A stretch of DNA of 64,000 nucleotides, from positions 1 through 64,000 of the IMG/VR virus record IMGVR_UViG_3300008107_000029, one strand, 5' to 3'. Shown in pieces: positions 31,253 to 58,074 of this stretch. Every line of letters starts with the position of its first letter. Position 1 is the stretch's first letter. The notes under the pieces are model-generated. The model was not told where the DNA came from, made no database searches, and saw only the letters and a list, made by a program, of their open reading frames with translations. The position numbers were made by a program, and so were the translations under genes. This DNA is from a virus.

Positions 31253-31989
31253 TACATGTATTCTTTTTTCTGCCACATTTCTTTTTTATAGCCACTGGAA
31301 AGATGTCTTCTTACCTTCATGTTTAGTAGTTCGTATTCATCTTTTCCCATAGCCCTTGGCTCTGTAGCCATCCAAGATTCACGCTTAAAAGGAATGATTT
31401 GCATCATTGGTGTTCCCATTGGAATAACCCCCTCAAATCCCTTTTTAATAAAAAATGGGTGGTTCCCTGTCGCATACCAGTGATCAGTATCCATCACGCC
31501 AGAAACTGTATGAATTGGAAGGTCATCTCTGTTTAGTGGGTGTGTGTACAAAGTACTGTAGCCAGGTGGAGTCTTTGCTTCCCAGTGTGTAAGCCAAGTA
31601 AACTCACAGTCATAGTACTCATCTGGAATAGGCATAGATGTTTTATTTGATGGACCTCTAGTATTAACTATGTTAAAAGATGGGTGTGAACTAATCTTTA
31701 CACTTGCTCCATTAAAAGAACTCTCTACATAAATATCACAAGGGGTTGTCATAATATATCCCATAGTAAACGCATCAAAGAACGGCATACACTGTTTTAG
31801 TGTTGAGTTAGCACTGCCAAATCTATCATCCCACTCTGCTGTTTTTGAGTGATGAGAAGGTATATTTTTATACCAATCTGGAATTAAAGTTCTTGCTGGC
31901 TTAGGGGCCTCACAAGATTGTAAGATTATCTCATCCCTAGCAACAAAAGTAATGTCCTGATAGGGCCTAAACTTTTTCTTCTTAAACAT
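31252..31989 (-). CDS. Conserved phage protein (DUF6065-like/dUTPase-like fold), paralog 1
   Basis: PKPA...IPDWYK, TLKQCMPFFD...GY, TPPGYSTL..HP, GVMDTD, GTPMMQIIPFKR. Confidence 0.6.
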   Translation of the reverse strand: MFKKKKFRPYQDITFVARDEIILQSCEAPKPARTLIPDWYKNIPSHHSKTAEWDDRFGSANSTLKQCMPFFDAFTMGYIMTTPCDIYVESSFNGASVKISSHPSFNIVNTRGPSNKTSMPIPDEYYDCEFTWLTHWEAKTPPGYSTLYTHPLNRDDLPIHTVSGVMDTDHWYATGNHPFFIKKGFEGVIPMGTPMMQIIPFKRESWMATEPRAMGKDEYELLNMKVRRHLSSGYKKEMWQKKEYM

Positions 31990-32001
31990 TGTCTACCTTT
32001 T

Positions 32002-32196
32002 CTATTTGTTTTTTGCTGAATCTGTTTTGTAAAATCCTGAGCCTTTAAATTGTATTGCAAATGATGAATAAGATCTAATCATATCTGCTTCACATTCAAC
32101 ACAAGTATATCCTGGATCTTCATCTTTAATTGATCTATGCACTGACATTATAGCGTGTGCATCATCTTCAGAGCATTTGTATTCATATACGGGCAT
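32002..32196 (-). CDS. FmdB-family zinc-ribbon protein
   Basis: MPVYEYKC...CVEC...FKGSGFYKTD. Confidence 0.8.
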   Translation of the reverse strand: MPVYEYKCSEDDAHAIMSVHRSIKDEDPGYTCVECEADMIRSYSSFAIQFKGSGFYKTDSAKNK

Positions 32197-32825
32197 TACT
32201 TTTCCACCGTGCCAGTCCCAACACCCTTACGATACATCTTAACCTCCCCTGAAGGAAATGACTTGTAGGCCATTACTGGTGCTCCACAATAGGTGTCGTG
32301 TTTAATTGCAGCCTCAACTGCCCATGCTGCATGCTGGTCATGCTTCTTTACCCAATCTGGATCTTTCCAGCCGTGTGCTAGATATCCCATTGCCAACTCT
32401 GTTCCAGAACCAATTACAGAATAATCTCTGTTGACTGAAACTCCAAGTGTCTCACTGACAGTGAAAGACTTTCCGTGTGTTACTAAAGTAAAGTATGAGT
32501 CGTCTGGTATTCCAGCCACTCCATTTTCTGTTTTTAATGATTGCTCATCTGACATTGCATCTCTGATTAATGGTACAACCTTTGTAACCATAAATTTCAT
32601 TGCCTCGTTGTAGTCATCAAGGTTTACTGTCTTGGGTACAACTGGATACTTAATTCCAAACTGTACTACATCGCAAACTCTATCTGCTCCTGCAGCACCA
32701 ATAAGCCAAGTGCCTTGTTGAACAATTTTATTTGTAGGTGTGGCTTTAATGTTATCCCAAGTAATACCAGAATCAGATGCCAATACTGCATACTGTGAAC
32801 TAACGGTTGAGACTATACAGGTCAT
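32196..32825 (-). CDS. Ntn-hydrolase, proteasome-beta/HslV-like peptidase
   Basis: N-terminal MTCIV, ASDS, NKI, GAAG, IGSG..AMG, AAIKHD..CG. Confidence 0.75.
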   Translation of the reverse strand: MTCIVSTVSSQYAVLASDSGITWDNIKATPTNKIVQQGTWLIGAAGADRVCDVVQFGIKYPVVPKTVNLDDYNEAMKFMVTKVVPLIRDAMSDEQSLKTENGVAGIPDDSYFTLVTHGKSFTVSETLGVSVNRDYSVIGSGTELAMGYLAHGWKDPDWVKKHDQHAAWAVEAAIKHDTYCGAPVMAYKSFPSGEVKMYRKGVGTGTVEK

Positions 32826-33856
32826 GCTGATCCCCTTGCGTGTGGTTTGGATTCGTTTAAACTTGCTATAGATACTGTATCATATTCGGAGTCTTCTTGC
32901 AAATCTGACAGGCTGTGAGATCCAGAATAAGAACACCCTGAGCCTAGGCCTAATCTAAATTTATTTAGACTATCTTCAACTGCCCCCTTGTATGGTACCT
33001 TAGTAGATATACCCTCAGAACCTGCAGAATAGCCTCTCCAGGCCTCCTGAGCCTCACTTGAAGCCATCCCACGGAAAGACTTAAAGCCATCAATAATGTC
33101 TCCTGGAGCCTCGTCGTGTCCTGCCAAAGCAGATCCTAGCATAACTGCAGATGCCCCTGCTGCAAAAGACTTAACCATATCTCCTGAGTTCCTAATTCCA
33201 CCATCTGCAATGATTCCCAGATTAGATACTGATTCATCATTAAAGCAATCTAAGATGGACTGTAGGGTTGGCCTTCCGTGCCCAGTTACAATCCTAGTAG
33301 TGCAGGCTGCACCACCACCAATTCCAACACGAACAGAGTCTGCACCCATCTGCAATAGCATCTTGTATCCTTCTGCTGTTGAAACATTGCCAGCCATAAT
33401 GTGTGTAGCAGGATTTAAAACTGCTCTCAATTTCTTTACGGCTTCTAGTGCATAATCACTGTGACCATTTGCTGTATCAACACATATTACTTTTGCTCCA
33501 GCCTCTTCTAATTCTAAGGCGTGTGACTCATAGTATCCAGTAGCAGCAACTGCTGCACCAACTACAAATCCCATTTCGGAAACAAGTTTAACTTGTCTTA
33601 CCTGCTCTACCTCATCCATATACCTATGGATTATACCTAGACCACCAAGCCTAGACATATGAGAAGCCATCTCCCATTCAGTAACAGTGTCCATAGGTGC
33701 AGAGATAATTGGAGTAGACAATGTGATCTGTGCTTCTGGCCTAACTCCAATAGTCATAGATAGGTCTACGTCTGATCTACTTTTAACACCTGACTGTTGT
33801 GGCACCAAAAGAATATCATCAAAGCATAGTGCCTTAACGTTGTTATACTTTCTCAT
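32822..33856 (-). CDS. IMP dehydrogenase/GMP reductase family protein (no CBS subdomain)
   Basis: FDDILLVP, SAPMDTVT, GNV, VGIGGGAACTTR, IIADGGIR, FRGMAS. Confidence 0.9.
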   Translation of the reverse strand: MRKYNNVKALCFDDILLVPQQSGVKSRSDVDLSMTIGVRPEAQITLSTPIISAPMDTVTEWEMASHMSRLGGLGIIHRYMDEVEQVRQVKLVSEMGFVVGAAVAATGYYESHALELEEAGAKVICVDTANGHSDYALEAVKKLRAVLNPATHIMAGNVSTAEGYKMLLQMGADSVRVGIGGGAACTTRIVTGHGRPTLQSILDCFNDESVSNLGIIADGGIRNSGDMVKSFAAGASAVMLGSALAGHDEAPGDIIDGFKSFRGMASSEAQEAWRGYSAGSEGISTKVPYKGAVEDSLNKFRLGLGSGCSYSGSHSLSDLQEDSEYDTVSIASLNESKPHARGSA

Positions 33857-34051
33857 TTACTCGCCGTCTACTTCGTAAGGGAATCCTAAGTCTTCCAGTT
33901 CATTATATTCTTCAATAATTAACATCTCTTTATAATAGATGCCATCTTTAATCCATTCAATGGTTGAAGCGTGAACGCCCTCACTAATTAGATTACCAAC
34001 AACTTCTTCGTCTATGATCCAAACTGGTCTAGATAGTTCAATGTCTTTCAT
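33857..34051 (-). CDS. Small acidic hypothetical protein
   Basis: ATGA coupling. Confidence 0.6.
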   Translation of the reverse strand: MKDIELSRPVWIIDEEVVGNLISEGVHASTIEWIKDGIYYKEMLIIEEYNELEDLGFPYEVDGE

Positions 34052-34305
34052 TTTTTACCCCTTGGTGGATCTCCTGCTTTGCCGTCAAAATGACACTTGA
34101 CACCAAAACTTTCAATGATCTTTCTAAGCATCTGCATATACTCCATGAGGCCTACTTGTCGTTGTTCACTCATAGCCATAACCTGATTTTCATAAGTTCT
34201 AAGTCCTATGTAGTCTGGGTATTCAACAAAATCTATCACCACGCCATAAGGTGGTTTTAAATCTCGAACAGCCTTTCGCATCTCTGGAGTGAACTTCGTA
34301 GCCAT
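34048..34305 (-). CDS. Hypothetical protein downstream of WhiB
   Basis: 85-aa ORF in a coupled run. Confidence 0.65.
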   Translation of the reverse strand: MATKFTPEMRKAVRDLKPPYGVVIDFVEYPDYIGLRTYENQVMAMSEQRQVGLMEYMQMLRKIIESFGVKCHFDGKAGDPPRGKK

Positions 34306-34308
34306 TTC

Positions 34309-34593
34309 TTATCCTATCTTCTCGATTATCTTATTCCATGTCTCTGAAGTTTTATGGGCATTCTTCATATTATCTGGCTTTCCATCTGCCAAATAAACTC
34401 CACCCCAAACTCCCCAGGACATAGTGTTAGTTCCATATTCAAAGCACTGCTTTATAACAGGGCAGTTAATACAAATCTTATCTGTAGAGGCAGCAACTTC
34501 TTTGTCTTCCTCATATTTATCAAAGAATTCATTTACTTCAAGGTCCTGACAAATTCCTCGAACTTGCCAATTAGTCTCTTCGAATAGATTCAT
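34309..34593 (-). CDS. whiB: WhiB-family Fe-S transcription factor
   Basis: W...C...FF...CINCPV...C...GVWGG signature; start placed at MNLFEE. Confidence 0.9.
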   Translation of the reverse strand: MNLFEETNWQVRGICQDLEVNEFFDKYEEDKEVAASTDKICINCPVIKQCFEYGTNTMSWGVWGGVYLADGKPDNMKNAHKTSETWNKIIEKIG

Positions 34594-34804
34594 TAGGAAG
34601 GTTCCATCCGTCCTTTGTGGGGACATATCTATTCGCAAAGCCCCATACGCCCTTGTAACGCATTCCATCTTTGCTAAACTCTGCAGCCTTGCTTCTCTTA
34701 AACTTTACAATTGTCCAGCCGTCCCAATGTAGGTCCTTAGACTTTGCAACGATTGCTTCTGCTTGTTCTAACTTGTTAATCTTCATTTCTCTCCTTGTGA
34801 TCAT
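34571..34804 (-). CDS. Hypothetical protein
   Basis: LHWDGWTIV...WGF...GW; probable start at MKINKL. Confidence 0.6.
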   Translation of the reverse strand: MITRREMKINKLEQAEAIVAKSKDLHWDGWTIVKFKRSKAAEFSKDGMRYKGVWGFANRYVPTKDGWNLPNESIRRD

Positions 34805-35163
34805 TTATAGATCCTTGTAGGTATTTCCATATTTTCAGCCTTACTCATAATAGGGTCAAAATACGGATTGTACTCTTTAGCACTAAAATATAATACCATT
34901 TCTACAGGACCTTTGTCAAGTTCATCTAGGAAGAGTTGTTTGGGCACACGATGATACTTTATTTTGATTTTCTTTTGCTTAAAGTAAGCCGAAGTCCTAT
35001 TGCAATACTCTGCAGTAAAATCATTTAACATGTGAGGGCCACCACACCAGATGTCGATCCTGTTGTCCTCAGAATTCTTATACGTTTCAATGGCAACTGT
35101 CAGCCCACGCATAAAGTCTGCGTAACTGTTAAAGTCGTCGTGTGCGTATGCATAAATAATCAT
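34801..35163 (-). CDS. Hypothetical protein
   Basis: 120 aa; TATACT-6nt-ATG leaderless start. Confidence 0.65.
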   Translation of the reverse strand: MIIYAYAHDDFNSYADFMRGLTVAIETYKNSEDNRIDIWCGGPHMLNDFTAEYCNRTSAYFKQKKIKIKYHRVPKQLFLDELDKGPVEMVLYFSAKEYNPYFDPIMSKAENMEIPTRIYK

Positions 35164-35177
35164 TGTCGTAGTATACC

Positions 35178-35879
35178 CTATCTATATTCTTTTCTATTCC
35201 ACCATAGATTTTTATATCTATTGACGAAAGATGTGTTGTGCTTATTAAGCATTGTTTGTTGATAACCTCTGCTTTCATCTACTGAGTACTCAGCAGTAAA
35301 CGAATCTCTTTTAAATGGCACAACGTGACATATTGGAGTTCCGTAAGGGATTACACCAGCGAAATCTTTTCTGATGTGAAAAGGAAAGTTAATGACTAAA
35401 GGAAATCTGTCAGTGTCTACAAACCCTGGAATGATCTTAAATGGAAGATCTTCACGATGTGGTGGTTGAAAAAACATTGTACTGTAACCATCTGGGGTAG
35501 TAATTCTCCAAGGATTAATAAACTTTAAAACAGTATCTTCATAACCATACGGCACTGGATATCCAATTACCTGATCGTCTGTATGTCCCTCTACTGCTTT
35601 AGTGTCGTAATCCATAGACCAGGAAACATCTACGTTACCATGCCCATCTCTTTTAACCAAGATGTCCGTCCATGTTTTTATTACATAGCCAGTAGACAAT
35701 GAATCCAAAATAGGAACACATTTTTTCATAGTAGCGTTCATTCCATCAAACTTACCACCGATGTAAGTATCCATAGACTTATACCAATCTGGAAGGTTCT
35801 TATTGGCAGGCTCTGGTTTTGGTGCAGCCTCAGACAACAGTGGATCAATTAAAGAAAATTGTATTTTTTTACTTGACAT
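35178..35879 (-). CDS. Conserved phage protein (DUF6065-like), paralog 2
   Basis: PEPA..LPDWYK, TMKKCVPILD...GY, PWRITTPDGYS, GFVDTD, GTP...VPFKR. Confidence 0.6.
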   Translation of the reverse strand: MSSKKIQFSLIDPLLSEAAPKPEPANKNLPDWYKSMDTYIGGKFDGMNATMKKCVPILDSLSTGYVIKTWTDILVKRDGHGNVDVSWSMDYDTKAVEGHTDDQVIGYPVPYGYEDTVLKFINPWRITTPDGYSTMFFQPPHREDLPFKIIPGFVDTDRFPLVINFPFHIRKDFAGVIPYGTPICHVVPFKRDSFTAEYSVDESRGYQQTMLNKHNTSFVNRYKNLWWNRKEYR

Positions 35880-37140
35880 ACCTTTTATTCCAATGCAAAG
35901 AGTTTTCTTGTGTAGAAAATGAGTACATTGAAATCATCGAGTTAATTAAATTAACAAGACTATTTTTTGACCTATGTGTCTTTGTCTTAAAGACTAGACC
36001 TTCCCAATCTATACCAAAGAAAGTATTAAAATCAAAGATTAATTTTTCATCTTTTGAATCAATAAAAGAATCTACAATCTCTTTAATTTCTTTATAAGAT
36101 TCGGTATCTTTAAAGTTTGAATCTTCATATACCTTTGTTTCTTCCCAGTCAATGCCCGTCCTTGTAAGGAACAGCCTTGATCCATAGTGCTTATAGATGG
36201 GTGTCCATCTCATACTGTAGAAAGAAAAACCTTCTTTAAAAAACTTTAAAGTAGTTTTAAAGTTGTCTTCATGAATTGATAAAGTCTTTTCCGATGCTTT
36301 ATTAATTCTATTAATATCTTTGGCTTTGCCAAACAAAAAGTATAAAGATAAAGCATTTGTTTTTGCTATAACTTCATTCTCTTTAAACTTAAGTCCATAG
36401 TACAATGGGAATCCATTATCAAATAAAAAGTCTTTGTGCATTTGTAATTCATCATAGAATTCATCTAACTCTTCATCTTTTTGGATTCCTTCTGTGCTGT
36501 CTAGAAATCTAACCATAGTAGAGTTTTCCATAATGCCAGAACTTGGATACCTTGCACCGTCATACTCTTCTCTTTGTAGAGTAGTCATTTCTTTATGATT
36601 CATGTAAAACTTAAAACCTTCTGTTTCGTTGTCATGTGGCAGATAGGCTCTTGGAAATGCAGTAAGCAAAACCTTTGAATCAAACTCAGCAAGTGACTGA
36701 TATTGTTTAAGTAGAACAATGTCCCAGTCTGGATCAAAACGCATATCAGATCCTATAGTCATGAAGTATGTTTCATTATTGTATTTAGAGTCTGTAAACA
36801 TTCTTAGTTTGCCATAGGTATCATAGATATAGTTTTTTTCTTTGCCGTCCAAAGCAACATAAGAAGTAGGAACGTATGAAATTCTTAAATTTGGATGATT
36901 GATTGGTGGCTCTAGACCTATATAGTTTTGAAATCCATGACCAACTATTCCTATAGTACAACTAACAAATAGGTTTCCTGGATCTCTTGCATTGTTATAT
37001 AAACTTTCAATAGTGTCATAAACACCTTCGTTTTCTCCAATAATGCTTACAAAGATAGAAGAAGTTTTTCTTTCGTCAACTAAGTATTCAGGGTCAAAGT
37101 TTGTTCCCTCAAATGAGTTTGTTCTGGTTGCTATGTTCAT
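35869..37140 (-). CDS. Divergent GT60-like glycosyltransferase paralog
   Basis: SIFVSI, LYNNARDPGNLFV, YNNETYFMTIGSDMRFDPDWD align with 30113-31252, but DSH is replaced by GSD. Confidence 0.7.
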   Translation of the reverse strand: MNIATRTNSFEGTNFDPEYLVDERKTSSIFVSIIGENEGVYDTIESLYNNARDPGNLFVSCTIGIVGHGFQNYIGLEPPINHPNLRISYVPTSYVALDGKEKNYIYDTYGKLRMFTDSKYNNETYFMTIGSDMRFDPDWDIVLLKQYQSLAEFDSKVLLTAFPRAYLPHDNETEGFKFYMNHKEMTTLQREEYDGARYPSSGIMENSTMVRFLDSTEGIQKDEELDEFYDELQMHKDFLFDNGFPLYYGLKFKENEVIAKTNALSLYFLFGKAKDINRINKASEKTLSIHEDNFKTTLKFFKEGFSFYSMRWTPIYKHYGSRLFLTRTGIDWEETKVYEDSNFKDTESYKEIKEIVDSFIDSKDEKLIFDFNTFFGIDWEGLVFKTKTHRSKNSLVNLINSMISMYSFSTQENSLHWNKRYVK

Positions 37141-37661
37141 TATCTAGTCTTTTCTTTGTAGTTAAAATACCAATGGTCTGGCTCTGCATAATGTAAGAAG
37201 AGCATTAATACTTTATTTCCTGGTGTAAAAGGTGGTCTGCCATGAAATTGATCTTCACCGTACATTGCAATAGCCTGATTGGCTTTAAGAACATAGTCTT
37301 TACCTTCAATAGTAACAGGCCAAGGTTCTTTTGAATACAGGCAAACGTCGTAACTATAGGTGCATGCATTGCTATCATAGTGAAATGGCAAAGACGATTT
37401 GTCGTTTTCGTATAGAGCAACGGTAGCATAAGTTGGTAGCAATGTCTCACTCCCAAAATCTTTTCTTGCTTTGTCAATGTTAGTTATGAGTATATTGGTT
37501 ATATAAGGAGAATTATGAAACCATCTATTCATATTATCATTTGACCAAAGCCACTCTTGGTTAAAATTAAATGTATTAATCTTGTTTATAATAGAAGTAT
37601 AATCTGATTGCTTGAAAAAATTATCAACAATCCAAGGATCTTTAACCTTACTGTTGACCAC
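37140..37661 (-). CDS. 2OG-Fe(II) oxygenase
   Basis: LLPTY, LPFHYD (HxD), WP, YG...HGR, FLHY. Confidence 0.8.
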   Translation of the reverse strand: MVNSKVKDPWIVDNFFKQSDYTSIINKINTFNFNQEWLWSNDNMNRWFHNSPYITNILITNIDKARKDFGSETLLPTYATVALYENDKSSLPFHYDSNACTYSYDVCLYSKEPWPVTIEGKDYVLKANQAIAMYGEDQFHGRPPFTPGNKVLMLFLHYAEPDHWYFNYKEKTR

Positions 37662-38313
37662 TGAACCTGTTTCCTTCCAATAAAAATTCAGTTCCAGGCT
37701 CTCCTAACCACGTTACAACAGCATATTTAGTTCCAGAAATTACTGGCTTTGCTTGATGTAGGTATGCATAGTCTGAAGGGAACAAAGCAATAGAAGGTGT
37801 TTGTGGATGAATATTTACATCGTGATGTACAAAATAGGTAGAACCGCCTTCATACTCACTTGGATTTAAATACATTACTGCTGAAAGAGTTCTGTATTCA
37901 TGTCCTGGTCCTCTATCGCAATGTGCTTTGTATTGTTTTCCTGGACCGTACTTTAAAAGTTGTAGGCCTTCGTCAAATGCAATATGTAAATCAAATGAGT
38001 CACAATAGTCTCTAACGCTTGCTCCAAGTCTGTCTCTAATTAATTCTGTTGCCGTTTGCATATCTTTTGCAGTCTTAGAAACAATGTCACAAGAGTCAAT
38101 TGCCATCACTTGGTTTGACCTTACAGTACCACCGTCGTGTCCCTGACCTACTTTTGCACCCTGAAAAGATACTTGACTTGTTACGTCTTGATCTATTGCT
38201 TCGTATGCTGCAATAATTTCTGCAGCCTGCTCTTTAGTAAAGATGTCATTGTATATTGCAATGGCTCCACCAAAAATATCCTTGGTTACTTCCTTTGGCA
38301 TATCTTTAATCAT
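37648..38313 (-). CDS. Prolyl 4-hydroxylase-like 2OG-Fe(II) oxygenase
   Basis: VRSN, EGLQLLKY..G..YKAHCD, RTLSAVMYLN..YEGGSTYF, LFPS...HQAKPVISGTKY..VTW. Confidence 0.88.
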   Translation of the reverse strand: MIKDMPKEVTKDIFGGAIAIYNDIFTKEQAAEIIAAYEAIDQDVTSQVSFQGAKVGQGHDGGTVRSNQVMAIDSCDIVSKTAKDMQTATELIRDRLGASVRDYCDSFDLHIAFDEGLQLLKYGPGKQYKAHCDRGPGHEYRTLSAVMYLNPSEYEGGSTYFVHHDVNIHPQTPSIALFPSDYAYLHQAKPVISGTKYAVVTWLGEPGTEFLLEGNRFSGQQ

Positions 38314-38322
38314 TTTATTCCC

Positions 38323-38934
38323 TTATCTCATATAGGATAGGGAGATTGTCCCTATGCCTTTTTCTTTCTCGTACAACTCTGAATCAATATCTTTACCACC
38401 GTGAAAAGCAGTAAAGAGACTTAATCTATAATGACTCAGGACTGGGTTGACTGAGTGCGTATACATAAAGTCTGCTGGTAATAATAATATTGTACCACCT
38501 TTAGGTTTGTATATCAAGTCTTCAAACTGATCAAATTTAATACTTCCACCCTCGTAATCGTCATTAAGAAAAACATAGCATGCTATCTTTCTTGTAAATG
38601 GAAGATAATCTATTTTATCATTGATAGAAGAAGATGCATTTAGGTTAATATTTTGAATTCCAGATCCTGGATTCATTACAAAAAATTGATACTTTTCTTG
38701 CCATTGTAGGGTATGAATAGACTCTTTGTATAAATCACAATAAGAAACCAAGCACTCTAGCACAGTCTTTTGAAGTTTTTCTAATTTGTAATTAATTTTT
38801 TTATCGGAGGATATGATTCTATTAGACTTTAATTCAAGTGGAGCCAGTCCATCTTCACCAATAATTAAATCTTCAACGGGAAATTCTACAATTCCTGGGG
38901 CAAGAATGTTATACTTCAAATCTTGGTGCCTCAA
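38323..38934 (-). CDS. P4H-like 2OG-Fe(II) oxygenase paralog lacking HxD
   Basis: RKIACYVFLNDDYEGG..F, PKGG..LLP...THSVNPV..R present; no HxD at the expected position. Confidence 0.7.
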   Translation of the reverse strand: MRHQDLKYNILAPGIVEFPVEDLIIGEDGLAPLELKSNRIISSDKKINYKLEKLQKTVLECLVSYCDLYKESIHTLQWQEKYQFFVMNPGSGIQNINLNASSSINDKIDYLPFTRKIACYVFLNDDYEGGSIKFDQFEDLIYKPKGGTILLLPADFMYTHSVNPVLSHYRLSLFTAFHGGKDIDSELYEKEKGIGTISLSYMR

Positions 38935-39418
38935 TTTCTGTGTCTTTGTTTTCTACAACAGTCTCTTTATAAACAATTAAAGATTTGTTATACAAGAATC
39001 CATTGCTATCATAAAGTTTAATGTAATATTCTCCAAAGGTTTTTGGAGTAAAACGAACTACAAACCTAATGTCTCCTTCTTTTTCTAAAGGATACTCCTC
39101 TACTATTTGAATATTTTTTGGATCATCCATATCTACTAAATGAAGTTCAATTCTTAAATCTTCCATTTTTTCATAAATTAACCATTCATTTAAATAATAA
39201 AGTTCAATTTCTTCTCCTAAAGGAAATGTTTCTTTTTCTAAAAACACAGTGTTTGTTTCTGGAATGTATACAATTTGAGGCTCTGATGGGTCTTGAAGAT
39301 ATAAATCAATTAAATCAGATTTACCTATAACAACTTGTGAGCATTCTGATTGCTGTGCTTTAAATAGAATATCCTCGTCAAGGGTTCGTCCTTCTGGAAC
39401 GTAATAGATTAATTCCAT
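38909..39418 (-). CDS. Acidic hypothetical protein (possible fibre chaperone)
   Basis: 169 aa between the fibre genes and the oxygenases. Confidence 0.55.
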   Translation of the reverse strand: MELIYYVPEGRTLDEDILFKAQQSECSQVVIGKSDLIDLYLQDPSEPQIVYIPETNTVFLEKETFPLGEEIELYYLNEWLIYEKMEDLRIELHLVDMDDPKNIQIVEEYPLEKEGDIRFVVRFTPKTFGEYYIKLYDSNGFLYNKSLIVYKETVVENKDTEIEAPRFEV

Positions 39419-39420
39419 TA

Positions 39421-40491
39421 TTACACCAATAGTTCTTTGATAGTTCCTGCTTCATGCCCAGTAACATCAAGTGCTACGGATGAAGGTCTTACAAATTGAG
39501 AGACTAGGAGGATTACTCCACCACCTGTTTGGTATGCCATTGCAGATGAGTTGTAGTATCCAGTTGCATAAACTGTTCCAAATCCAACCATCTTTCTTGC
39601 AGAAACTACAACAACTCCACCACCTGGTTGAGTTCCGTTTCCTGCACCACCACGTAATGGCAGTGGGACTGTTAAAGATCCACCAAAAGCATATCCATTA
39701 ATAGCATTCATTGGTAAGTTATAGTACTCAGGACCACCGTTAGCAACCACTGGAAGGCTACTAGCATAGCCAAGACCATCTCCTCCTAGACTATTTGATA
39801 CACTAACCTCAGACCCTCCTAGAAGTGATCCAACACCACTAAAACCATTCTTAAGTCCAATACTTGTTGTGGCTTGGTTGGCAATTGCCGAACTAAAGGT
39901 AAGGATATTTCTTACAAACACCCTATACCCATTAGTGTTTACGTGTACGCCTGGGGCAATAGTAAGATTACTATAATACATATCTCTAGTAAGATCTGTG
40001 TTTGCTGAGATTGTAACTGTTCCGTCTTTTCCAGATCCGTAAATTGAATCTGGAATGATATTAAAGTCGTATGTTGCTTGTGTCAGCCTGGTGATTGTTC
40101 TAATCTGATTGCCCTTTGCAGCATTAAGGCCGTCAAAGTAATAGTAGTTTACTGGTGTAGATGAGTTTGGCTGTATAGTTATTTTTCTAGCAGTTGCTGC
40201 GTTAAATCCAGAAGCATATGCTGCATAGTTTGCAACCAAAGTATTGTTTAAGAAATACTTAATTCCATATGCAGAACTCAAGGCACTTCCAGTGCTGTCT
40301 GCTACTGTTCCAATACATATTGGATGGCTTGCGTTGCTAGCATTGTCTTGGTTAATTGTATATGTATCTCCAACTGCCAATGTTAATACTGGGGCTGTAA
40401 CTGAATTTAAAACATAGTTTGTTGAATAAGTAGTTGTCTGTGTAAAAGCAGATGATTCTTGACTAACTGATCCAAATTGCGTAATAGGCAT
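39421..40491 (-). CDS. Glycine-rich virion/fibre protein
   Basis: IYGSGKDGTVTI...RDMYYSNLTI...TNGYRVFV and GGGVVVVSARK domain shared with the next gene. Confidence 0.65.
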   Translation of the reverse strand: MPITQFGSVSQESSAFTQTTTYSTNYVLNSVTAPVLTLAVGDTYTINQDNASNASHPICIGTVADSTGSALSSAYGIKYFLNNTLVANYAAYASGFNAATARKITIQPNSSTPVNYYYFDGLNAAKGNQIRTITRLTQATYDFNIIPDSIYGSGKDGTVTISANTDLTRDMYYSNLTIAPGVHVNTNGYRVFVRNILTFSSAIANQATTSIGLKNGFSGVGSLLGGSEVSVSNSLGGDGLGYASSLPVVANGGPEYYNLPMNAINGYAFGGSLTVPLPLRGGAGNGTQPGGGVVVVSARKMVGFGTVYATGYYNSSAMAYQTGGGVILLVSQFVRPSSVALDVTGHEAGTIKELLV

Positions 40492-42164
40492 TATTTAACA
40501 TCCTCCTCATTCTTAATAATTATAACACTTCCTGCTGTAGCGTATCCACCATCACCTGTACCTGCAGCAGATCTAACTTCAATAGTAGAAGGAATATTGT
40601 CTTCAGTTACTAGTAAAACAACTCCACCACCACCTGCATATCCAATAGTTCCTGGAGTTCCTGGAAGTCCAGCAGTAATAGATCCTCCTGCACCACCTGC
40701 TCCTCCTGCTCCACCAGGACCACCCTCAGCATATACTGAAGGAATAAATGATGTTGACTCTGGCTGATATGCTACAAAGAAAAATGAATATTGAGTTGGT
40801 CCTTGTCCTACTTGACGAGACTCTGTGTTGCTTCCAAAGTTTGTATAAGATGCAGCAACTTGTCTTTGTGTAGTAAATGGAAATGGGTTAAAAGATCCAG
40901 GGTTTCCTGGGGTTGGGGAGTTTCTTCCAGTTTGTACATACGACCATGGCTGTCCAGGCTGAAAAAATGAAAATGGGTTGCCTGGTTGAAAGAATGAAAA
41001 TGGGTTTCCAGGCTGAAAGAATCCACCACCTCTTGGAAATCTAACAAATCTTCCTGGGTTTGTTCCAAAAACTGTTCTTCCAGGGTTTGTTCCAGAAACA
41101 GTTCTTCCTGGAAAGACTCCAAAGATTCCTCTAGACCAAGCGTTGCCTGGAGTTGGAGCGTTTACATAAGAATATCCTGGTGTAACTGCTGGAGTTACTT
41201 GAGTATAGGTATAGTTAAATGTAACAGAAAATGGTTGTTGATAAAATTGTGTAACTACTGTTGGTGCATTGTATCCATATGCCAATACATTGTAGTTATA
41301 TCCTGCTGCATTTACTTGAGTTCTTGAGAATTGAAAAAAGTCTGGGGCCTTTGCTCCTGTATTTCCTGGTGCACCTGGATTACCAACACTTCCTGCGGTT
41401 CCTTCACCTGGTAAAGGTAATGGTCCTGGAGACTTTCCGTCAGCACGAATAATTCCAGATCCTATAATTTTTCTTGCAGAAATAACAACTACTCCACCAC
41501 CTGGACCTCCGTCTCCTCCAAGTCCTGCAGCACCTCCAAGCCCTCCAGTTCCTAAGTTTCCTGGAGCACCTGTGTTTCCTGGGGATCCTTTTCCACCTGG
41601 GGCACCCACTGTGTTTGTTCTAGATGTAGGACTTAAATTTCCTGGTGCACCTGGAGAACCTGCAGGGGCAGGCTGTGCAACTCCGTCTGCACCTTTGTTA
41701 CCTGGTGTACCTGGTTTTCCACCAGATCCACCTTGAAGTGTTCTAAGTCTATTTAATGCTGCATCAAATTTATATGCAACAATTGCTTGTGAAAAATTAT
41801 AAAACTCTGCTTCTCCAAAGAAGTTCTCACCGTTATTAAGACCACCAGATCCACCAAGAGTATCAGATGCTTTGACTCCCGAAGCCCCACCACCAAAGAT
41901 AGTTCCTGCAGTTACAGTGTCAGCGAGTCTTCCGATAACAGAAGTGGCGTCTGCCATTGTTAATGTGTCTTTAACAAAAACTCTAAATCCGTTTGTATCT
42001 AATTGTACGTTTGCTAAAATTGTAAGATTGTTATAGTACATGTCTCTATTCAAAGATATGTTTGAAATAACAGTGACATCGCCATCTGTTCCTGGTCCAT
42101 AAATCTCAAGGCCACCCTTACGGGAAGCCAAGACAACAGGCTCTGGAACTCTTACATCAGACAT
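40491..42164 (-). CDS. Glycine/proline-rich, collagen-like virion fibre protein
   Basis: Same Gly-rich domain as 39421-40491, plus G-X-P runs (GKPGTPGNKG, GSPGAPGNL, GAPGGKGSPGNTGAPGNLG, GNPGAPGNTG, GLPGTPG) and a central aromatic insert. Confidence 0.7.
   Translation of the reverse strand: MSDVRVPEPVVLASRKGGLEIYGPGTDGDVTVISNISLNRDMYYNNLTILANVQLDTNGFRVFVKDTLTMADATSVIGRLADTVTAGTIFGGGASGVKASDTLGGSGGLNNGENFFGEAEFYNFSQAIVAYKFDAALNRLRTLQGGSGGKPGTPGNKGADGVAQPAPAGSPGAPGNLSPTSRTNTVGAPGGKGSPGNTGAPGNLGTGGLGGAAGLGGDGGPGGGVVVISARKIIGSGIIRADGKSPGPLPLPGEGTAGSVGNPGAPGNTGAKAPDFFQFSRTQVNAAGYNYNVLAYGYNAPTVVTQFYQQPFSVTFNYTYTQVTPAVTPGYSYVNAPTPGNAWSRGIFGVFPGRTVSGTNPGRTVFGTNPGRFVRFPRGGGFFQPGNPFSFFQPGNPFSFFQPGQPWSYVQTGRNSPTPGNPGSFNPFPFTTQRQVAASYTNFGSNTESRQVGQGPTQYSFFFVAYQPESTSFIPSVYAEGGPGGAGGAGGAGGSITAGLPGTPGTIGYAGGGGVVLLVTEDNIPSTIEVRSAAGTGDGGYATAGSVIIIKNEEDVK
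40953..41112 (-). repeat. 27-bp (9-aa) coding repeats
   Basis: PGRTVSGTN PGRTVFGTN PGRFVRFPR ... PGNPFSFFQ PGNPFSFFQ PGQPWSYVQ. Confidence 0.75.
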
Positions 42165-44050: not shown

Positions 44051-47000
44051 TTACGCCTGCGATTCTGTCCATGAGACACGAGCAGAGATTTTAAGAGGTA
44101 TTGCTTCAGTTACTGAGGCAGGCTCTACGACAACTGCTGCTACTGTAAGAACATCTGGTCCGTCTGGGAACACACCGTCTCCACCAAGGATTGAGTTACC
44201 TAAAGTTGCAAGTTCTGCAAGAGATAATGTAGTATCTTGTGAGTTTACGGTTCCAGTACCTGCTGCACGGAAGTTGTAGAGAACAATTCCACCAGTGTAC
44301 AAATCTCCCTTAGAGTGTTTAATCAACTGGCTGAGTGAAGGCTTGTTCACGAATGTCCAGTTAGTGTTATCTAAAGTTGAGTTAAGAATCAAGTAGATTT
44401 CGCAGTCGTAGTTTGTAAGAATACCAACAGAGTTAAGAATTGTCTGCATTCTATTTACTACTTCTTTTGAACCTAAGTTACCAGTGTTAGCATTATCTAC
44501 TGAAGGAGCAAGACGTGCTGATACTAGAGGGATTACTGATGGAACAATGTCTGTTCCTGATCCAATATTGTATGTTTGTGATGTTGGATATGTAAAGGTT
44601 GCTCCATCGTTAGTATAAATAATTACTTGAGCACCTGAACCAGTTGAGCCACCAGTGTACCAACGTGCATTGTTAGTAAGAGTTGCAGTTCTTGGGAATG
44701 TTCCAGAGCCTGGTGCTACTGTTGAAGCAATAAACTGTGTAGATGATCCTAGGTAAGGTGTAATATAAACAACTGAACCATTAGAGATTGTTGATCCAGT
44801 ATAAGATCTACCACCTGATCCACCATAGAAGAATGTTGATGGTACAGATGAATCTGCTTCCCATCTAACTCTATGGACAGTTCCTGCAGTCATTCCGTGT
44901 CCACTTGCTACGGTAAAGACAGTAAAGTTATTTGTTGCATCAAATAATTGCTGTTGAGAAGTTACGGTTCTAAATGTGGCACCATCTGTTGCAGAAGGAG
45001 CCTGGTCAACATAAACCCAACCAGTGTTATTGTATCCACGAACTGGCACTCCAATTGTTTTTGTTCCTACTGGAAGTTTTTCATTAAGTGCAGTTGAGTT
45101 AGCCACTGCTGTATTATTTTTAATTGCAGCAACTACTGCGTTGGTGTATGAATCAAATGTAATTCTGTAAGCAGCAACAGTTGTTGCTGTGTCAGGGTCA
45201 GTGATGGTATATGACTTAGTTGTTTCAATTTGACCAGGAGCAGTCTTTTGAGTTGAGTTGTTTGTAAACTGAATTGAATCTCCTGCTGCTGTAAACAAAT
45301 AAGCCTTGTCATCTTGGAACTCTCCATCCATAATAATAGATGTACCCCAGTGAGAAAGTGATGGTACGTATGAAGGAATTCCTGTTGAAGTAATTTCATA
45401 ACGGGCTGGAAGGTTTCCTGCTCTCATGTATGCTTCAGTAAATATATTGTTGTGGATAAATTCATGGAAGTACTTTACGTGCCCCTTTTGATCTTTAAAT
45501 CCAAATCTAACTTTACCTGCACCATACCAAGAGTAGTCAATGTAAGCCATTTGAATCTTTGTAAGATCTAGGTTAAATCCTGATGGGCCAGTTCCATCTG
45601 CTGGATCAAGGTTCCAGTTTGCTTGTTCTACTTTAGTATCTACAACCTTTGAAATGATAACTCCACTCTTAGAGATACCACGATATGCTGGTTGGATATA
45701 CATAATGTCATTTGAGTCAACCTTTACAACCTTGTAAGTTTGTCCCTTAATAACAACGCTTTGTCCCTTTGCTACCTGAGAAGAGAATGAAGTGCTAGAA
45801 CCAACAATTCTTGTAGAGTTAAACGCTACTGTTGCAGTTCCAGACATCTGTTGTGTAGATGATCGTCTTACACAGTACAACTTGCTACCGTCAAACTCAA
45901 AGAAGATTCCATTTTGATCATCAAACAATCCTGATCTTAGTACACAGTTTACCCAAGAAACTGGATTAAATTGTGGGAATCCTCCTGGACGATCTGTTTG
46001 TGGAGTTCCTAAAAGTGTAATGGTGAATGTTCTTTCATCAATAATTTGATTAATTTCAAAGTTTCCATTCCAGTAATTAGGACCAAGATCGCCAATTCCA
46101 TTTACAGCATCTACAATTCTAACTGTAACAACATCTGTACAGCGATGTGGGTTTCTTGTTGTAATTGTTGCAGTAGTTCCTACTCTTGTATATGTATCAA
46201 TCTGAGTTGGAGCGTTAAAGTTAATTGCCTTAGATACCTGAATACCCTTACCTGACTGGTAACGGAAGTACTTACGGGTCTGACGAATCATAGATGCGTC
46301 TGGGTTAGTAGAAGGAGTAAGTTCAACACCACCGTCGTAAGGTCTGTGAACTGCGAATCCATCACCCTTAACATACAATGATGTAGAGGTTGCATATGAT
46401 AAATCGGTTCTAGCAACACCAGAGGCAGTTGAGATTGGAGTTTGTGCTTCATCTGATCCTGTAACTGGAATAGTATCTTCTACAGTCAAGGCAGTTGCTG
46501 ATCTAATTCCAGTAATCTTGGAAGCAAACACTGTTCCTGGAAGTACTGGAGAGATTGTCATGTTACCAGTTCCAAGGCCAGTAATATCAATTCTGTTTGA
46601 ATCTGCATTAGCATCTGCTGGATTTGGATAGAATGCTAAAGTTGAAGTTGTAAGTGCTCTTACATAGTAAATTCTTGATGCTGAAAGCCCAGTTGGCAAA
46701 GTAGTACTAGATGAAACTCTTACAGCAAGACCAGTTGTATATGTATGTGTATCTTGAGTTGTAACAATGTTTGTTGTTAAGTTAATACCACTGGACTGAG
46801 TTACAAATTCAAGATTGCTTAATCTAGTATCTGGTACATATACTTTAAATACATCTCCAATCTTATAAAGATTTGGGAAGTTTGTTCCAAGTCCATTGAT
46901 TGTTTTTGTTCCTGGAACTAGGCTAACAGTTCCGCTTGCAGGAAATTCTGCAGCAACGTTAGAACTTGTAATTGAGTGAGTTACACCAGATCCAAATGAT

Positions 47001-57144: not shown

Positions 57145-57165
57145 TCTATCTCCTTTTATTTTATA

Positions 57166-57275
57166 GACTGGTGCGAGGTCCTTTTGACCTGCGTCGAATG
57201 GGGAAAGCGTTATGCTGTCTCACCTGCTCTATGGTATGGTAACTATTCATCCTAAGATAAAGCCTCACACCAGCC
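57166..57275 (-). ncRNA. Candidate ~110-nt structured RNA/leader
   Basis: 13-bp closing stem GGCUGGUGUGAGG/CCUCGCACCAGUC with two G-U pairs, starting 6 nt after TGATATAAT. Confidence 0.55.
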
Positions 57276-57287
57276 TTGATTATTATA

Positions 57288-58043: not shown

Positions 58044-58074
58044 TGCTTACCTTTCGACTTTCTAATTATAACAT

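Follow-up and report, generated by a model that had tools for sequence, protein, structure and literature searches.

What is the target of a set of oxygenase and glycosyltransferase homologues encoded directly behind a Gly/Pro-rich fibre gene? This question is raised by an uncultivated phage (IMG/VR IMGVR_UViG_3300008107_000029), probably infecting aquatic actinobacteria, of which positions 1-64,000 were analysed (the window, 64,000 nucleotides). A first-pass annotation of this DNA had proposed that prolines of the fibre are hydroxylated and subsequently glycosylated, in parallel to the Skp1 pathway.

Organization of the locus

Eight minus-strand ORFs follow one another without gaps at 35178-42164. 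In order of reading, they encode fibre A (40491-42164, 557 aa), fibre B (39421-40491, 356 aa), an acidic protein (38909-39418, 169 aa), the oxygenase homologues Oxy2 (38323-38934, 203 aa), P4H (37648-38313, 221 aa) and Oxy3 (37140-37661, 173 aa), the glycosyltransferase homologue GT60-B (35869-37140, 423 aa) and the DUF6065-like protein 'a' (35178-35879, 233 aa). A further pair on the same strand, DUF6065-like 'b' and GT60-A (30113-31989), lies outside this run. The stop/start overlap TAATG was read directly from the sequence at 40491 and 37140, and the remaining cassette junctions have 11-26 nt overlaps or 2-9 nt spacing, so the gap-free run with TAATG-coupled or overlapping junctions described in the first-pass annotation was confirmed. 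Promoter-like sites were not above chance (52 observed versus 50 expected from shuffled sequence), and terminator-like sites within the run were weak and all located inside coding sequence. Based on these features, the genes of the run are read as one operon. Upstream of the cassette, the late structural block begins with a 2273-aa repeat-rich virion structural/fibre-like protein (44051-50872, minus strand; phrog_5838, E 3.9e-138).

The two cassette halves are separated by a minus-strand insert of ~3.2 kb (31990-35177), in which Pfam and PHROG matches identified minus-strand genes for a Zn-ribbon protein (32002-32196), an HslV-like protein (32196-32825), a GMP reductase/IMPDH-family protein (32822-33856) and a WhiB-like regulator (34309-34668), together with small ORFs. 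Of the minus-strand promoter-like sites in the region, the best (34919-34890) also lies inside this insert. The genes for DUF6065-like 'a' and 'b' abut in the related loci L004, L006, L007 and L084-L087 and are split in this phage only.

Conservation of the cassette

Synteny of the cassette with the fibre genes ahead of it extends to >40 viral contig loci. The order fibA-fibB-acid-Oxy2-P4H-(Oxy3)-GT60B-DUF-DUF-DUF-GT60A is kept in the seven loci named above at 30-50% protein identity, and ~30 more loci show fibA-fibB-...-P4H-P4H-Oxy3-...-DUF. Since these loci come mostly from one related phage group, the synteny represents few independent events. An independent arrangement, fibre-GT60-DUF-DUF-P4H, is present in the structural module of L018 and L141, and in L123 a giant phrog_5838 structural protein, homologous to the 44051-50872 product, is followed by DUF-GT60-DUF-P4H-DUF and then the portal. 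P4H-GT60 fusion proteins were also found elsewhere (P0040 and P0046). The physical and evolutionary association of the P4H and GT60 genes with Gly/Pro-rich fibre genes is supported. Co-occurrence of P4H, GT60 and fibre genes held in the syntenic loci but was not general: within 8 kb of 80 P4H-seeded loci, GT60-A type genes occurred in 23 and GT60-B type genes in 7. DUF6065-like genes were present in 53 of the 80, and the constant partner of the P4H is this family, not GT60. In a sister clade, the GT60 slot is occupied by an FkbM methyltransferase.

Fibre proteins and the acidic protein

Fibre A, the proposed substrate of hydroxylation and glycosylation, contains 19% Gly and 8.8% Pro. A conserved N-terminal domain is followed by short stretches of Gly-X-Y that carry Pro in position Y (X-Pro-Gly), and the protein also has an insert of aromatic xPGN repeats and Gly-rich motifs of the GGGGVV type. 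The abundance of X-Pro-Gly noted earlier proved to be a striking enrichment, with 26 Pro-Gly versus 5 Gly-Pro dipeptides, and in strict Gly-X-Y runs Pro occupies Y ten times and X never; the residue preceding Pro is mostly Ser or Thr. Likewise, in 32 fibre-A-like orthologues with 191 triplets, Y is Pro in 80 cases and X in three, with 328 PG versus 24 GP dipeptides. This bias is animal-like and atypical of bacterial collagen-like proteins, which usually favour X as the site of Pro and Y as that of Thr (PMC8968730). Fibre A had no match in Pfam or PHROG, Pfam Collagen was not detected in it, and no homologue was found among isolated phages; its orthologues in L004 and L007 are 49-52% identical. 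Pro-Gly is also the classic β-turn dipeptide, and the Gly-rich motifs could adopt polyglycine-II or β-helical structures instead of collagen helices. Collagen-like Y-Pro runs (8-15 per protein) are found only in the subclade with at least two GT60 genes. In the sister clade, no fibre A has more than one Y-Pro triplet, yet P4H, Oxy2 and Oxy3 are kept, and none of 50 P4H-bearing loci outside the main group has an ORF with at least three Y-Pro triplets within 8-10 kb.

A BLASTP match to fibre A (E 2e-18, 41% identity over 139 aa) marks fibre B as its paralogue; fibre B is Gly-rich but has none of the Pro-rich triplets, and no Gly-X-Y triplet was found in 35 fibre-B-like orthologues. Its N-terminus resembles baseplate wedge proteins (phrog_708, E 2e-11). 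The acidic protein (pI 4.26, D+E 22%) had no family match in Pfam or PHROG; it is syntenic with the fibre pair, and L004, L007 and many P4H-seeded loci have an orthologue at this position. The Gly-rich paralogue and the acidic ORF had both been recognized in the first-pass annotation.

Oxygenase homologues

P4H matches PF13640 with 57.9 bits and retains, as previously read, the complete H131-x-D133...H186...K196 pattern; R141 is conserved too. Its best PDB match is the B. anthracis P4H (E 5e-8 with the single sequence, 3e-12 with the clade profile), followed in the profile search by PBCV-1 vCPH (8e-10), and the profile ranks the B. anthracis, PBCV-1 and Chlamydomonas P4Hs above HIF-type PHDs. 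These matches identify the protein as a homologue of collagen-type Fe(II)/2-oxoglutarate prolyl 4-hydroxylases with, judged from conserved residues, an intact active site. In contrast, the hydroxylase of the Skp1 pathway is of the PhyA/EglN type, and on the profile ranking the earlier parallel to that pathway does not hold for the hydroxylase.

All three proteins initially called 2OG-Fe(II) oxygenases are 2OG-oxygenase homologues, but Oxy2 is without the iron ligands. It matches PF13640 with 27.9 bits, just over the cut-off of 27 bits, and no HxD motif was found in its alignment; the triad columns read I-L-H in this phage and F/Y-P/T-K/N/R in the seven closest orthologues, while H-D-H is retained in the copies of the sister clade. 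Oxy2 is probably a degenerate, non-catalytic P4H paralogue of the DSBH fold family. The sole family match of Oxy3 is phrog_2954, and in its family H94, H140 and R142 are retained and D96 is almost invariant. The AF2 model (pLDDT 92) has the 2OG oxygenase fold, and its structural neighbours are generic 2OG oxygenases, including HalB (Z 16.2), PHDs, vCPH and AlkB-like proteins. Oxy3 is therefore predicted to be a small 2OG-Fe(II) oxygenase with an intact H-x-D...H-x-R motif.

GT60 homologues

GT60-A (30113-31276, minus strand) matches PF11397 with 81.4 bits and has every family-invariant residue, including the intact QIDSH motif seen before, DWD and GEE; its nearest relative, on a ~98 kb contig, is 74% identical. 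It is likely the active transferase, being the sole catalytic-looking GT60 copy here. The copy read in the first pass as cotranscribed behind the fibre gene, GT60-B, is indeed a PF11397 homologue (42.2 bits), but it reads TIGSD where the family reads QIDSH. D-x-H is absent in all eight members of the GT60-B clade and present in the other 97 of 105 GT60 ORFs. With its metal/UDP-binding D-x-H motif lost, GT60-B is a probable pseudo-glycosyltransferase, and the likely catalytic copy is the distal one. PF11397 members of known activity use polypeptide substrates, and Ser/Thr glycosylation is also known for GT60 enzymes.

DUF6065-like proteins

The first-pass assignment of 'a' as DUF6065-like is upheld by phrog_7084 (E 1.4e-50); its match to PF19541 was below threshold, and DUF6065 matches were obtained for 16 of 27 family members. 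Paralogue 'b' (31252-31989, minus strand) matches both phrog_7084 (E 7.5e-45) and PF19541 (E 1.1e-4). The top Foldseek and VIA-align matches of the AF2 model of 'a' (pLDDT 89) were exclusively dUTPase-superfamily chains (dUTPase and dCTP deaminase, Z 10.0 to 5.2), with unrelated folds at Z ≤4.5. The family is accordingly predicted to have a dUTPase/dCTP-deaminase-like fold.

A third paralogue, 'c' (57288-58043, minus strand; phrog_7084, E 3.9e-46), was absent from the first-pass annotation. Its neighbours encode a signal-peptide Ig-like, Ala/Thr-rich protein (58119-59141), a methyltransferase (59472-60110) and a PA14/tail-fibre-like protein (60655-62877), and it may be part of a second mini-cassette downstream of the PA14 fibre-like gene.

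Proposed function and alternatives

The reading put forward here, at a probability of roughly 0.45, is a late-expressed cassette for post-translational modification of virion fibre proteins. P4H would hydroxylate X-Pro-Gly prolines of fibre A, encoded immediately upstream, and Oxy3 could carry out a second hydroxylation at an unspecified residue. Then, GT60-A may transfer HexNAc, most likely GlcNAc, from a UDP-sugar to the new hydroxyproline or, with about equal odds, to the Ser/Thr that usually precedes it. Oxy2 and GT60-B could be retained as non-catalytic partners, for example in substrate holding or presentation, and the three DUF6065-like proteins may serve as accessory subunits, perhaps binding the uridine nucleotide of the donor sugar or of the product; theirs is the least certain role in the scheme. 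The earlier proposal of hydroxylation followed by glycosylation is partly supported: the collagen-type P4H, the X-Pro-Gly motifs and the synteny speak for it, but a Hyp-O-GlcNAc linkage is one possibility rather than a deduction, because GT60 also uses Ser/Thr and these residues mostly precede the fibre prolines.

Modification of the fibre is supported by the family assignments of P4H and GT60-A, the operon and its synteny, the independent arrangements in structural modules, the X-Pro-Gly bias with Y-Pro runs restricted to the subclade having at least two GT60 genes, the P4H-GT60 fusions and the Mimivirus/PBCV-1 precedent. Against it stand the P4H loci without Y-Pro ORFs, the Y-Pro-poor fibre A of the sister clade with its oxygenases kept, the β-turn alternative for Pro-Gly, the undetected Pfam Collagen, the lack of GT60 in most P4H loci and the degeneracy of GT60-B and Oxy2; moreover, the fold of the DUF6065-like proteins and their haloarchaeal-virus context suit a nucleotide role at least equally.

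It is unlikely that the enzymes instead modify other proteins and lie next to the fibre genes only because that site attracts accessory genes. Bacterial PPHD acts on EF-Tu and Tpa1/OGFOD1 on uS12, and Oxy3 has P. putida P4H/EF-Tu and OGFOD1 among its structural neighbours. Candidate targets would be host translation factors or ribosomal proteins during takeover, or other phage proteins such as the secreted Ig-like protein (58119-59141); at six loci, a relative of this protein is found 5-10 kb away from P4H or GT60. In addition, ~50 more distant loci carry P4H-like genes without a recognisable fibre-A/B gene or Y-Pro-rich ORF, homologous 2OG oxygenases are frequent accessory genes in cyanophages and pelagiphages, and the moron-like insert indicates that the site accepts accessory DNA. 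However, the P4H clade is nearer to collagen-type P4Hs than to PPHD, 4iw3 being matched only at E 0.036 with the single sequence and not at all at E ≤0.01 with the profile. The tight translational coupling to fibre genes, conserved at 30-50% identity, and the animal-like Y-Pro bias also favour a fibre target, and host takeover is poorly matched by late structural-operon expression.

The dUTPase-like fold keeps in play a distinctly improbable reading in which the cassette acts on nucleotides or DNA bases: the DUF6065-like proteins would bind or process pyrimidine nucleotides, the 2OG oxygenases would hydroxylate a base or a sugar, and GT60 or FkbM-type enzymes would glycosylate or methylate it, resembling TET/JBP-plus-glycosyltransferase DNA hypermodification. 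A DUF6065-like G-V-V-D-T-D motif resembles dUTPase motif III and G-T-P-x-x-Q-V-I-P-F aligns with motif IV of E. coli Dut, but the hhalign comparison with Dut was not significant (E 0.06, probability <1%), and alignment inspection and the C-terminal helix of the model indicate that the phosphate-binding Arg of motifs II and IV and the entire motif V are apparently missing. In haloarchaeal viruses, homologues (32-36% identity) adjoin the genes for thymidylate synthase and DNA polymerase, this phage record yielded no canonical dUTPase, and a DNA methylase follows the cassette in L123; on the other hand, the cassette is located in the late structural operon, not in a replication module. The only PDB sequence matches of the Oxy3 profile are to Naegleria Tet-like dioxygenase (E 0.06), but TET/AlkB do not rank above protein hydroxylases by fold, the principal oxygenase clearly belongs to the P4H type, and the enzymes of PF11397 transfer GlcNAc to polypeptides. 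At least three paralogues per genome, and the array DUF-P4H-DUF-P4Hx5-DUF in L169, are also unlike known base-modification pathways.

Finally, an auxiliary pathway decorating host cell-envelope glycans or making a small secreted metabolite, for example in superinfection exclusion, would follow the proposal made for cyanophage clusters that combine 2OG oxygenases with cupins and O-methyltransferases; in a published comparative-genomics study, similar phage clusters are read as decorating the capsule or serving secondary metabolism (PMC7824862). This is quite doubtful: the modular, shuffled enzymes (oxygenases, GT60, FkbM and SAM methyltransferases) do resemble biosynthetic clusters, and the best Oxy3 structural neighbours include the amino-acid/natural-product oxygenases HalB, SnoK, AviO1 and PolD, but no enzyme that builds a scaffold (NRPS, PKS, sugar-nucleotide synthase, flippase or polymerase) turned up among the searched ORFs of the cassette and its relatives, and the cassette is translationally coupled to fibre genes. 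The polypeptide substrates of characterized PF11397 members likewise argue against it.

As a system for modifying virion fibre proteins, the cassette can be likened to those with which viruses modify their own collagen-like or Pro-rich proteins. Both Mimivirus (PMC9546862) and PBCV-1, whose collagen P4H is PDB 5c5t, encode hydroxylases and glycosyltransferases for this purpose. By this analogy, the phage cassette would belong among the known virus-encoded collagen-modifying systems as a variant, one that includes the hitherto unexplained DUF6065-like family, now with a predicted dUTPase fold.

Organization and setting of the cassette

Hydroxylation and glycosylation of the phage's own fibre by a dedicated gene cassette is the leading reading of this region, with a probability of about 45%, and the catalytic core of such a cassette would consist of the prolyl 4-hydroxylase (P4H) homologue at 37648-38313 and the GT60 homologue at 30113-31276 (GT60-A). 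All of the ORFs named in the first-pass annotation were found in place on the minus strand, and the run is gap-free from fibre A (40491-42164) through fibre B (39421-40491), an acidic ORF (38909-39418, pI 4.26), the oxygenase homologues Oxy2 (38323-38934), P4H, and Oxy3 (37140-37661), and the in-operon GT60 copy GT60-B (35869-37140) to a DUF6065-like gene (35178-35879). The TAATG coupling described there was likewise seen, as stop/start overlaps at 40491 and 37140. Pfam and PHROG searches returned the expected families, namely two PF13640 oxygenase homologues, one phrog_2954 oxygenase, two PF11397 (GT60) genes, and phrog_7084/DUF6065-like genes. The cassette is part of a long structural block on the minus strand, which holds a 2273-aa phrog_5838 virion protein, three small tail-like ORFs, the two fibre genes, and the enzymes. 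Terminator-like sites within the cassette are weak, and a promoter scan found no excess of promoter-like sites in the region over shuffled sequence.

The source record in IMG/VR is 96.8 kb and ~85% complete, and the window is its first 64 kb. The portal protein (4408-6003) shows 54% identity to the portals of ~130 kb Streptomyces phages (Mildred21, Starbow, and others), a WhiB-family regulator is encoded at 34309-34668 (PF02467, E 8e-11), and the GC content of the window is ~39%; together, these features suggest a tailed phage of an uncultivated low-GC aquatic actinobacterium. Among 50,697 isolated phages, no match was found to the whole stretch by megablast, or to GT60-A or fibre A by tblastn, and the gene context was therefore taken from uncultivated viral contigs.

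The WhiB gene belongs to a moron-like minus-strand insert of ~3.2 kb (31990-35177), which also carries a GMP reductase/IMPDH-family gene (32822-33856, PF00478, E 6e-97), an HslV/proteasome-like gene (32196-32825), a Zn-ribbon gene, and, at 34919-34890, the best promoter-like site on the minus strand of this region. In the homologous loci L004, L006, L007, and L084-L087 on other contigs, the order fibre A-fibre B-acidic ORF-Oxy2-P4H-(Oxy3)-GT60-B-three DUF6065-like genes-GT60-A is uninterrupted. Because of this contiguity, the two GT60 regions of the window are best read as one cassette that has been split in this phage by the insert. A possible second mini-cassette was observed at 56566-62877, comprising a CHAP endolysin (56566-57144), a third DUF6065-like gene (57288-58043) that is missing from the first-pass list, a signal-peptide-bearing Ig-like Ala/Thr-rich protein of 340 aa (58119-59141) whose family was met only in viruses, a SAM methyltransferase (59472-60110), and a PA14/tail-fibre-like protein of 740 aa (60655-62877).

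Intact and degenerate oxygenase homologues

The ORF at 37648-38313 encodes a collagen-type P4H homologue with an intact active site. It scores 57.9 bits on PF13640 (cut-off 27), and its Fe(II) triad (H131, D133, and H186) is invariant in an eight-member clade; H-D-H is found at the triad columns in 97 of ~108 P4H-family ORFs. In P4Hs, a Lys residue ~10 residues after the distal His binds the C5 carboxylate of 2-oxoglutarate, and here the basic residue is K196 in G-T-K-Y-A-V-V-T-W, which aligns with the corresponding Lys of the Bacillus anthracis P4H. The full HxD...H...K pattern proposed for this gene is thus borne out residue by residue. When the clade profile was compared with PDB, the best matches were the P4H of B. 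anthracis (3e-12), vCPH of PBCV-1 (8e-10), and the Chlamydomonas P4H (1e-5), and HIF/EglN-type PHDs followed behind these collagen-type P4Hs at only 1e-4 to 5e-3.

The first-pass count of three 2OG-Fe(II) oxygenases is correct as to homology, but one of them lacks the Fe(II) facial triad. Oxy2 scores 27.9 bits on PF13640, its HxD motif is gone, and its triad columns read I-L-H; in the seven closest orthologues, HxD is likewise gone (F/Y-P/T-K/N/R), while the sister-clade copies are intact. Oxy2 is therefore probably an inactive P4H homologue. Oxy3 retains H94, D96, H140, and R142, and its structural model (pLDDT 92) is a confident 2OG oxygenase fold, with a mixture of amino-acid, prolyl, and nucleic-acid oxygenases as structural neighbours. 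Assignment of Oxy3 as a TET/JBP-type enzyme was considered and rejected, with a match to NgTet of E 0.06 and no backing from generic fold rankings. A screen of longer proteins for domain fusions with P4H or DUF6065-like domains found none, which is weak evidence.

Two GT60 copies with different motifs

GT60 enzymes are expected to have a GT-A fold akin to that of the GT27 polypeptide GalNAc-transferases. The assignment of both glycosyltransferase genes to this family held in the HMM search against PF11397, where GT60-A and GT60-B scored 81.4 and 42.2 bits, respectively, above the curated threshold of 21, and a scan of the whole record found the same two genes. The suggestion that a GT60 gene is cotranscribed behind the fibre gene stands insofar as a PF11397 gene lies in the operon; however, that copy lacks the D-x-H motif, and the intact copy is the distal GT60-A. 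In GT60-A, QIDSH is present, W122-D123 is invariant, E243-E244 and H268 are nearly invariant, and the DWD and GEE motifs and the family His are kept. GT60-B reads TIGSD at the QIDSH position, and its seven orthologues read QISPS, SISSA, SVSSC, SISSR (three), and SVSSR. D-x-H is kept in 97 of 105 unique GT60-family ORFs on viral contigs, and the eight exceptions are exactly the GT60-B orthologue clade. Since the members without D-x-H form one clade, are all full-length (8/8), and where aligned are ~33% identical to the window copy, GT60-B appears to be a conserved pseudo-enzyme rather than a decaying gene.

A PDB sequence search with GT60-A alone gave no match, and the family profile gave a single weak one, to the ppGalNAc-T 6s22_A (E 0.005). 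Likewise, an IMG/VR scan with GT60-A as a single protein found nothing, and an alignment-based scan found PF11397 relatives on >530 IMG/VR contigs. The public metagenome proteins P0040 and P0046 each join, in one polypeptide, a 2OG-Fe(II) oxygenase domain (PF13640/PF13661) and a PF11397 GT60 domain that retains QIDSH. Giant-virus (GVMAG) contigs frequently carry GT60 homologues as well (L035, L036, L011, L021, L056, and L066); at L035/L036:6875-11772, a 413-aa P4H-like ORF is immediately followed by a 915-aa ORF containing GT60 and by a second GT60.

A viral family with a predicted dUTPase fold

The DUF6065-like proteins (35178-35879, 31252-31989, and 57288-58043) are predicted to have the jelly-roll fold of dUTPases. 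The AlphaFold2 model (pLDDT 89) was matched by VIA-align to dUTPases and dCTP deaminases in all of the top 22 rows (Z 10.0-5.2; next fold 4.5), with 3t60_A as the best match (Z 10.0, rmsd 2.8 Å over 123 residues), and Foldseek searches of PDB and BFVD returned the same superfamily. The family is overwhelmingly viral and single-domain, amounts to 4,297 clusters at 50% identity, and ranges over ~215-267 aa among the best 150 members. Its invariant residues include K52, C54, G64-Y65, D157 of VDTD (D155 is nearly invariant), and G180-T181-P182, with no conserved His, and the proteins are therefore not oxygenases; a cupin or 2OG oxygenase identity was ruled out by this absence together with the dUTPase-like fold. 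No mention of DUF6065 was found in the searchable literature.

Two stretches conserved in the family recall motifs of trimeric dUTPases and dCTP deaminases: VDTD resembles motif III, and GTPxxQxIPF resembles motif IV (G..I.Q.I). An hhalign comparison with E. coli Dut covered the motif IV-like stretch only and was not significant (E 0.06), and PF00692 matched one of 27 members (E 0.063). The DUF6065-like model has a C-terminal helix where dUTPases have the Gly-rich arm of motif V, and the arginines that bind phosphate in dUTPases seem to have been substituted; also unlike dUTPases, three paralogues occur per genome, always beside protein-type hydroxylase or GT60 genes. The preferred interpretation is that these proteins may be uridine-nucleotide-binding accessories to modification enzymes, and a role in nucleotide metabolism is the main alternative. 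DUF6065-like homologues of 32-36% identity were also seen in haloviruses of the HF1, HF2, and HSTV-2 type (HSTV-2 and ~45 other haloarchaeal tailed viruses), and in Halovirus HSTV-2 (KC117376.1, 28132-29001), the DUF6065-like gp40 gene adjoins thymidylate synthase and DNA polymerase genes. Searches of isolated phages with the window P4H and GT60-A gave no halovirus match.

Co-occurrence across viral contigs

Relatives of the P4H clade were found on ~400 IMG/VR contigs, and the ORFs of 80 GT60-seeded and 80 P4H-seeded loci were scanned with the window proteins. Within 10 kb of the GT60 seeds, DUF6065-like genes were present in 18 of the 80 loci and P4H-like genes in 10; within 8 kb of the P4H seeds, DUF6065-like genes were present in 53 of 80, GT60-A-type genes in 23, and GT60-B-type genes in seven. 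The gene order is often shuffled: L018 and L141 read fibre-GT60-DUF-DUF-P4H, and L123, L130, and L017 read DUF-GT60-DUF-P4H-DUF, flanked in L123 by the gene of a phrog_5838 structural protein on one side and the portal gene on the other; P4H-DUF, P4H-DUF-Oxy3, or DUF-GT60 pairs occur in many loci. A scan of genome contigs for DUF6065-like genes gave 12 loci, nearly all on short, phage-looking MAG contigs, again with adjacent P4H-like genes. An extreme expansion of this pairing was observed on a contig binned with an actinobacterial (Acidimicrobiaceae) MAG (L169:1-6651), where six P4H-like and three DUF6065-like genes are arranged as DUF-P4H-DUF-P4Hx5-DUF. On the strength of the locus counts, the shuffled orders, and the MAG contigs, the constant partnership is that of the hydroxylase with the DUF6065-like protein, and GT60 is a frequent but optional module. 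The expected co-occurrence of P4H, GT60, and fibre genes is thus seen in the syntenic cassettes, but the pairing of P4H with GT60 is not constant.

In a sister clade of ~30 further loci, the order is fibre A-fibre B-(acidic ORF)-P4H-P4H-Oxy3-X-DUF-Y-Oxy3-DUF. In the one such locus examined (L095:9221-9934), slot X, which elsewhere holds GT60-B, is filled by an FkbM-type methyltransferase (PF05050, E 6e-7), and the same is possibly the case in the sister-clade loci L088-L122. With an FkbM gene in the GT60-B slot, hydroxylation might be followed by O-methylation instead.

The fibre as a candidate substrate

Fibre A contains 19% Gly and 8.8% Pro, and the abundance of X-Pro-Gly triplets noted at first pass is real, with 26 Pro-Gly versus five Gly-Pro dipeptides in fibre A and 328 versus 24 in 32 fibre-A-like orthologues. 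Its five strict Gly-X-Y runs, each of 3-6 triplets, hold Pro at Y 10 times and never at X; across 191 triplets of the orthologues, Pro occupies Y in 80 and X in three, and Ser and Thr dominate X. The Gly periodicity of three is conserved in the orthologues, whose runs extend to as many as 13 triplets when Gly is accepted in the X or Y position, and no Pfam Collagen domain was found in fibre A at E <=0.01. Fibre B has a 139-aa domain and a GGGVVV..SARK motif in common with fibre A (E 2e-18) but no Pro-rich triplets. Bacterial collagen-like proteins usually carry Pro in the X and Thr in the Y position, and Pro or hydroxyproline (Hyp) at Y is the animal pattern (PMC8968730). The Y-Pro bias of fibre A, contrary to the bacterial norm, fits X-Pro-Gly hydroxylation.

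Several observations qualify this fit. Only the subclade with at least two GT60 genes has the collagen-like Y-Pro runs; the sister clade, though retaining P4H, Oxy2, and Oxy3, has scattered xPGN motifs only. Outside the fibre-A clade, a Y-Pro-rich collagen-like ORF was found near P4H in 0 of 50 loci. Pro-Gly dipeptides are typical of beta turns too, and the Gly-rich stretches of fibre A might adopt polyglycine-II-type structures. Characterized GT60 enzymes of Dictyostelium and Trypanosoma glycosylate Ser/Thr directly; by analogy, because Ser or Thr usually precedes the fibre Pro, GT60 could glycosylate these residues without recourse to Hyp. Within the fibre-directed reading, a Hyp-O-GlcNAc linkage specifically is given about even odds.

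Comparison with known systems and alternative readings

The first-pass annotation modeled the cassette on the Skp1 pathway of Dictyostelium and Toxoplasma, in which PhyA is followed by the GT60 enzyme Gnt1. The phage likewise encodes both a homologue of 2OG prolyl hydroxylases and one of PF11397/GT60, and the fused P0040 and P0046 proteins echo this pairing. In contrast to the Skp1 pathway, however, the phage P4H is of the collagen type, nearest to those of B. anthracis and PBCV-1, and not of the PhyA/EglN type; GT60 is not an obligate partner in the phage loci; the phage has no Skp1, and in place of one Pro, its candidate substrate offers tens of X-Pro-Gly sites along a repetitive fibre; and pseudo-enzymes, a second oxygenase, and dUTPase-fold proteins are present in addition. 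The Skp1-type pathway as such is therefore not upheld, given the type of the hydroxylase and the inconstancy of GT60.

Giant viruses offer another parallel in that PBCV-1 (vCPH, PDB 5c5t, which ranks second among the solved relatives of the phage P4H clade) and mimivirus (L230) encode hydroxylases and glycosyltransferases together with Gly-X-Y- or Pro-rich particle-surface proteins. In mimivirus, collagen is modified by the lysyl hydroxylase/glucosyltransferase L230 and a collagen glucosyltransferase (PMC9546862). Unlike these eukaryote-infecting viruses, the present virus is a tailed phage, probably of actinobacteria, its transferase belongs to GT60 and not to the family that makes the hydroxylysine-glucose of mimivirus, and its enzyme genes share an operon with those of the fibres. 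The B. anthracis P4H is the closest solved homologue and shares the prokaryotic setting; its activity has been shown on synthetic peptides only, and BclA of that organism is a glycosylated, collagen-like surface filament of the exosporium (PMC8968730). Unlike the phage cassette, that system has neither GT60 nor a DUF6065-like partner, and BclA is glycosylated on Thr with rhamnose/anthrose oligosaccharides by unrelated enzymes. In mycobacteriophages, capsid and tail-tube proteins are O-glycosylated by phage-encoded glycosyltransferases, and a similar use of phage-encoded enzymes on structural proteins is predicted here; those phages, however, employ other glycosyltransferase families and no hydroxylase, and their targets are the capsid and tail tube instead of a Gly/Pro-rich fibre. 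Phage virion glycosylation is touched on in PMC11256854. The combination of host type, collagen-type P4H with GT60, conserved pseudo-enzymes, and a dUTPase-fold partner sets the cassette apart from the Skp1, giant-virus, and B. anthracis systems, and no description of a phage P4H with GT60 or of hydroxylated phage fibres was found in the searchable literature.

That the cassette targets proteins other than the fibre is considered unlikely. Decoration of small molecules or of the envelope, as suggested for cyanophage clusters (PMC7824862), is less likely still, and modification of nucleotides or DNA is equally doubtful. In a further-reaching and improbable extension of the fibre-directed reading, the DUF6065-like proteins would be a novel class of partners or enzymes that depend on uridine nucleotides and work obligatorily with P4H-type hydroxylases; together with GT60, they would build Hyp-linked glycans, or some other adduct derived from nucleotides, on the fibres of phages. 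Tailed phages would in that case have either invented a eukaryote-like Hyp glycosylation or borrowed one, and would have equipped it with pseudo-enzyme subunits of its own.

Implications

With its pairs of probably active and degenerate enzyme copies, the cassette is a compact, naturally occurring case of pseudo-enzyme partners. The host range of phages is decided by receptor-binding fibres, and fibre-directed modification, if true, would constitute an unrecognized chemical layer on the fibres, on which adsorption, stability, and recognition by host defences depend. Collagen-style post-translational chemistry, shown to date for animals, some protists, and giant viruses, and for Bacillus on peptides only, would then reach bacteriophages as well. 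Furthermore, fibre-directed modification would provide the first functional context for the numerous 2OG-Fe(II) oxygenase genes that aquatic phages carry, for the viral GT60 genes, and for the thousands of clusters of the DUF6065/phrog_7084 family.
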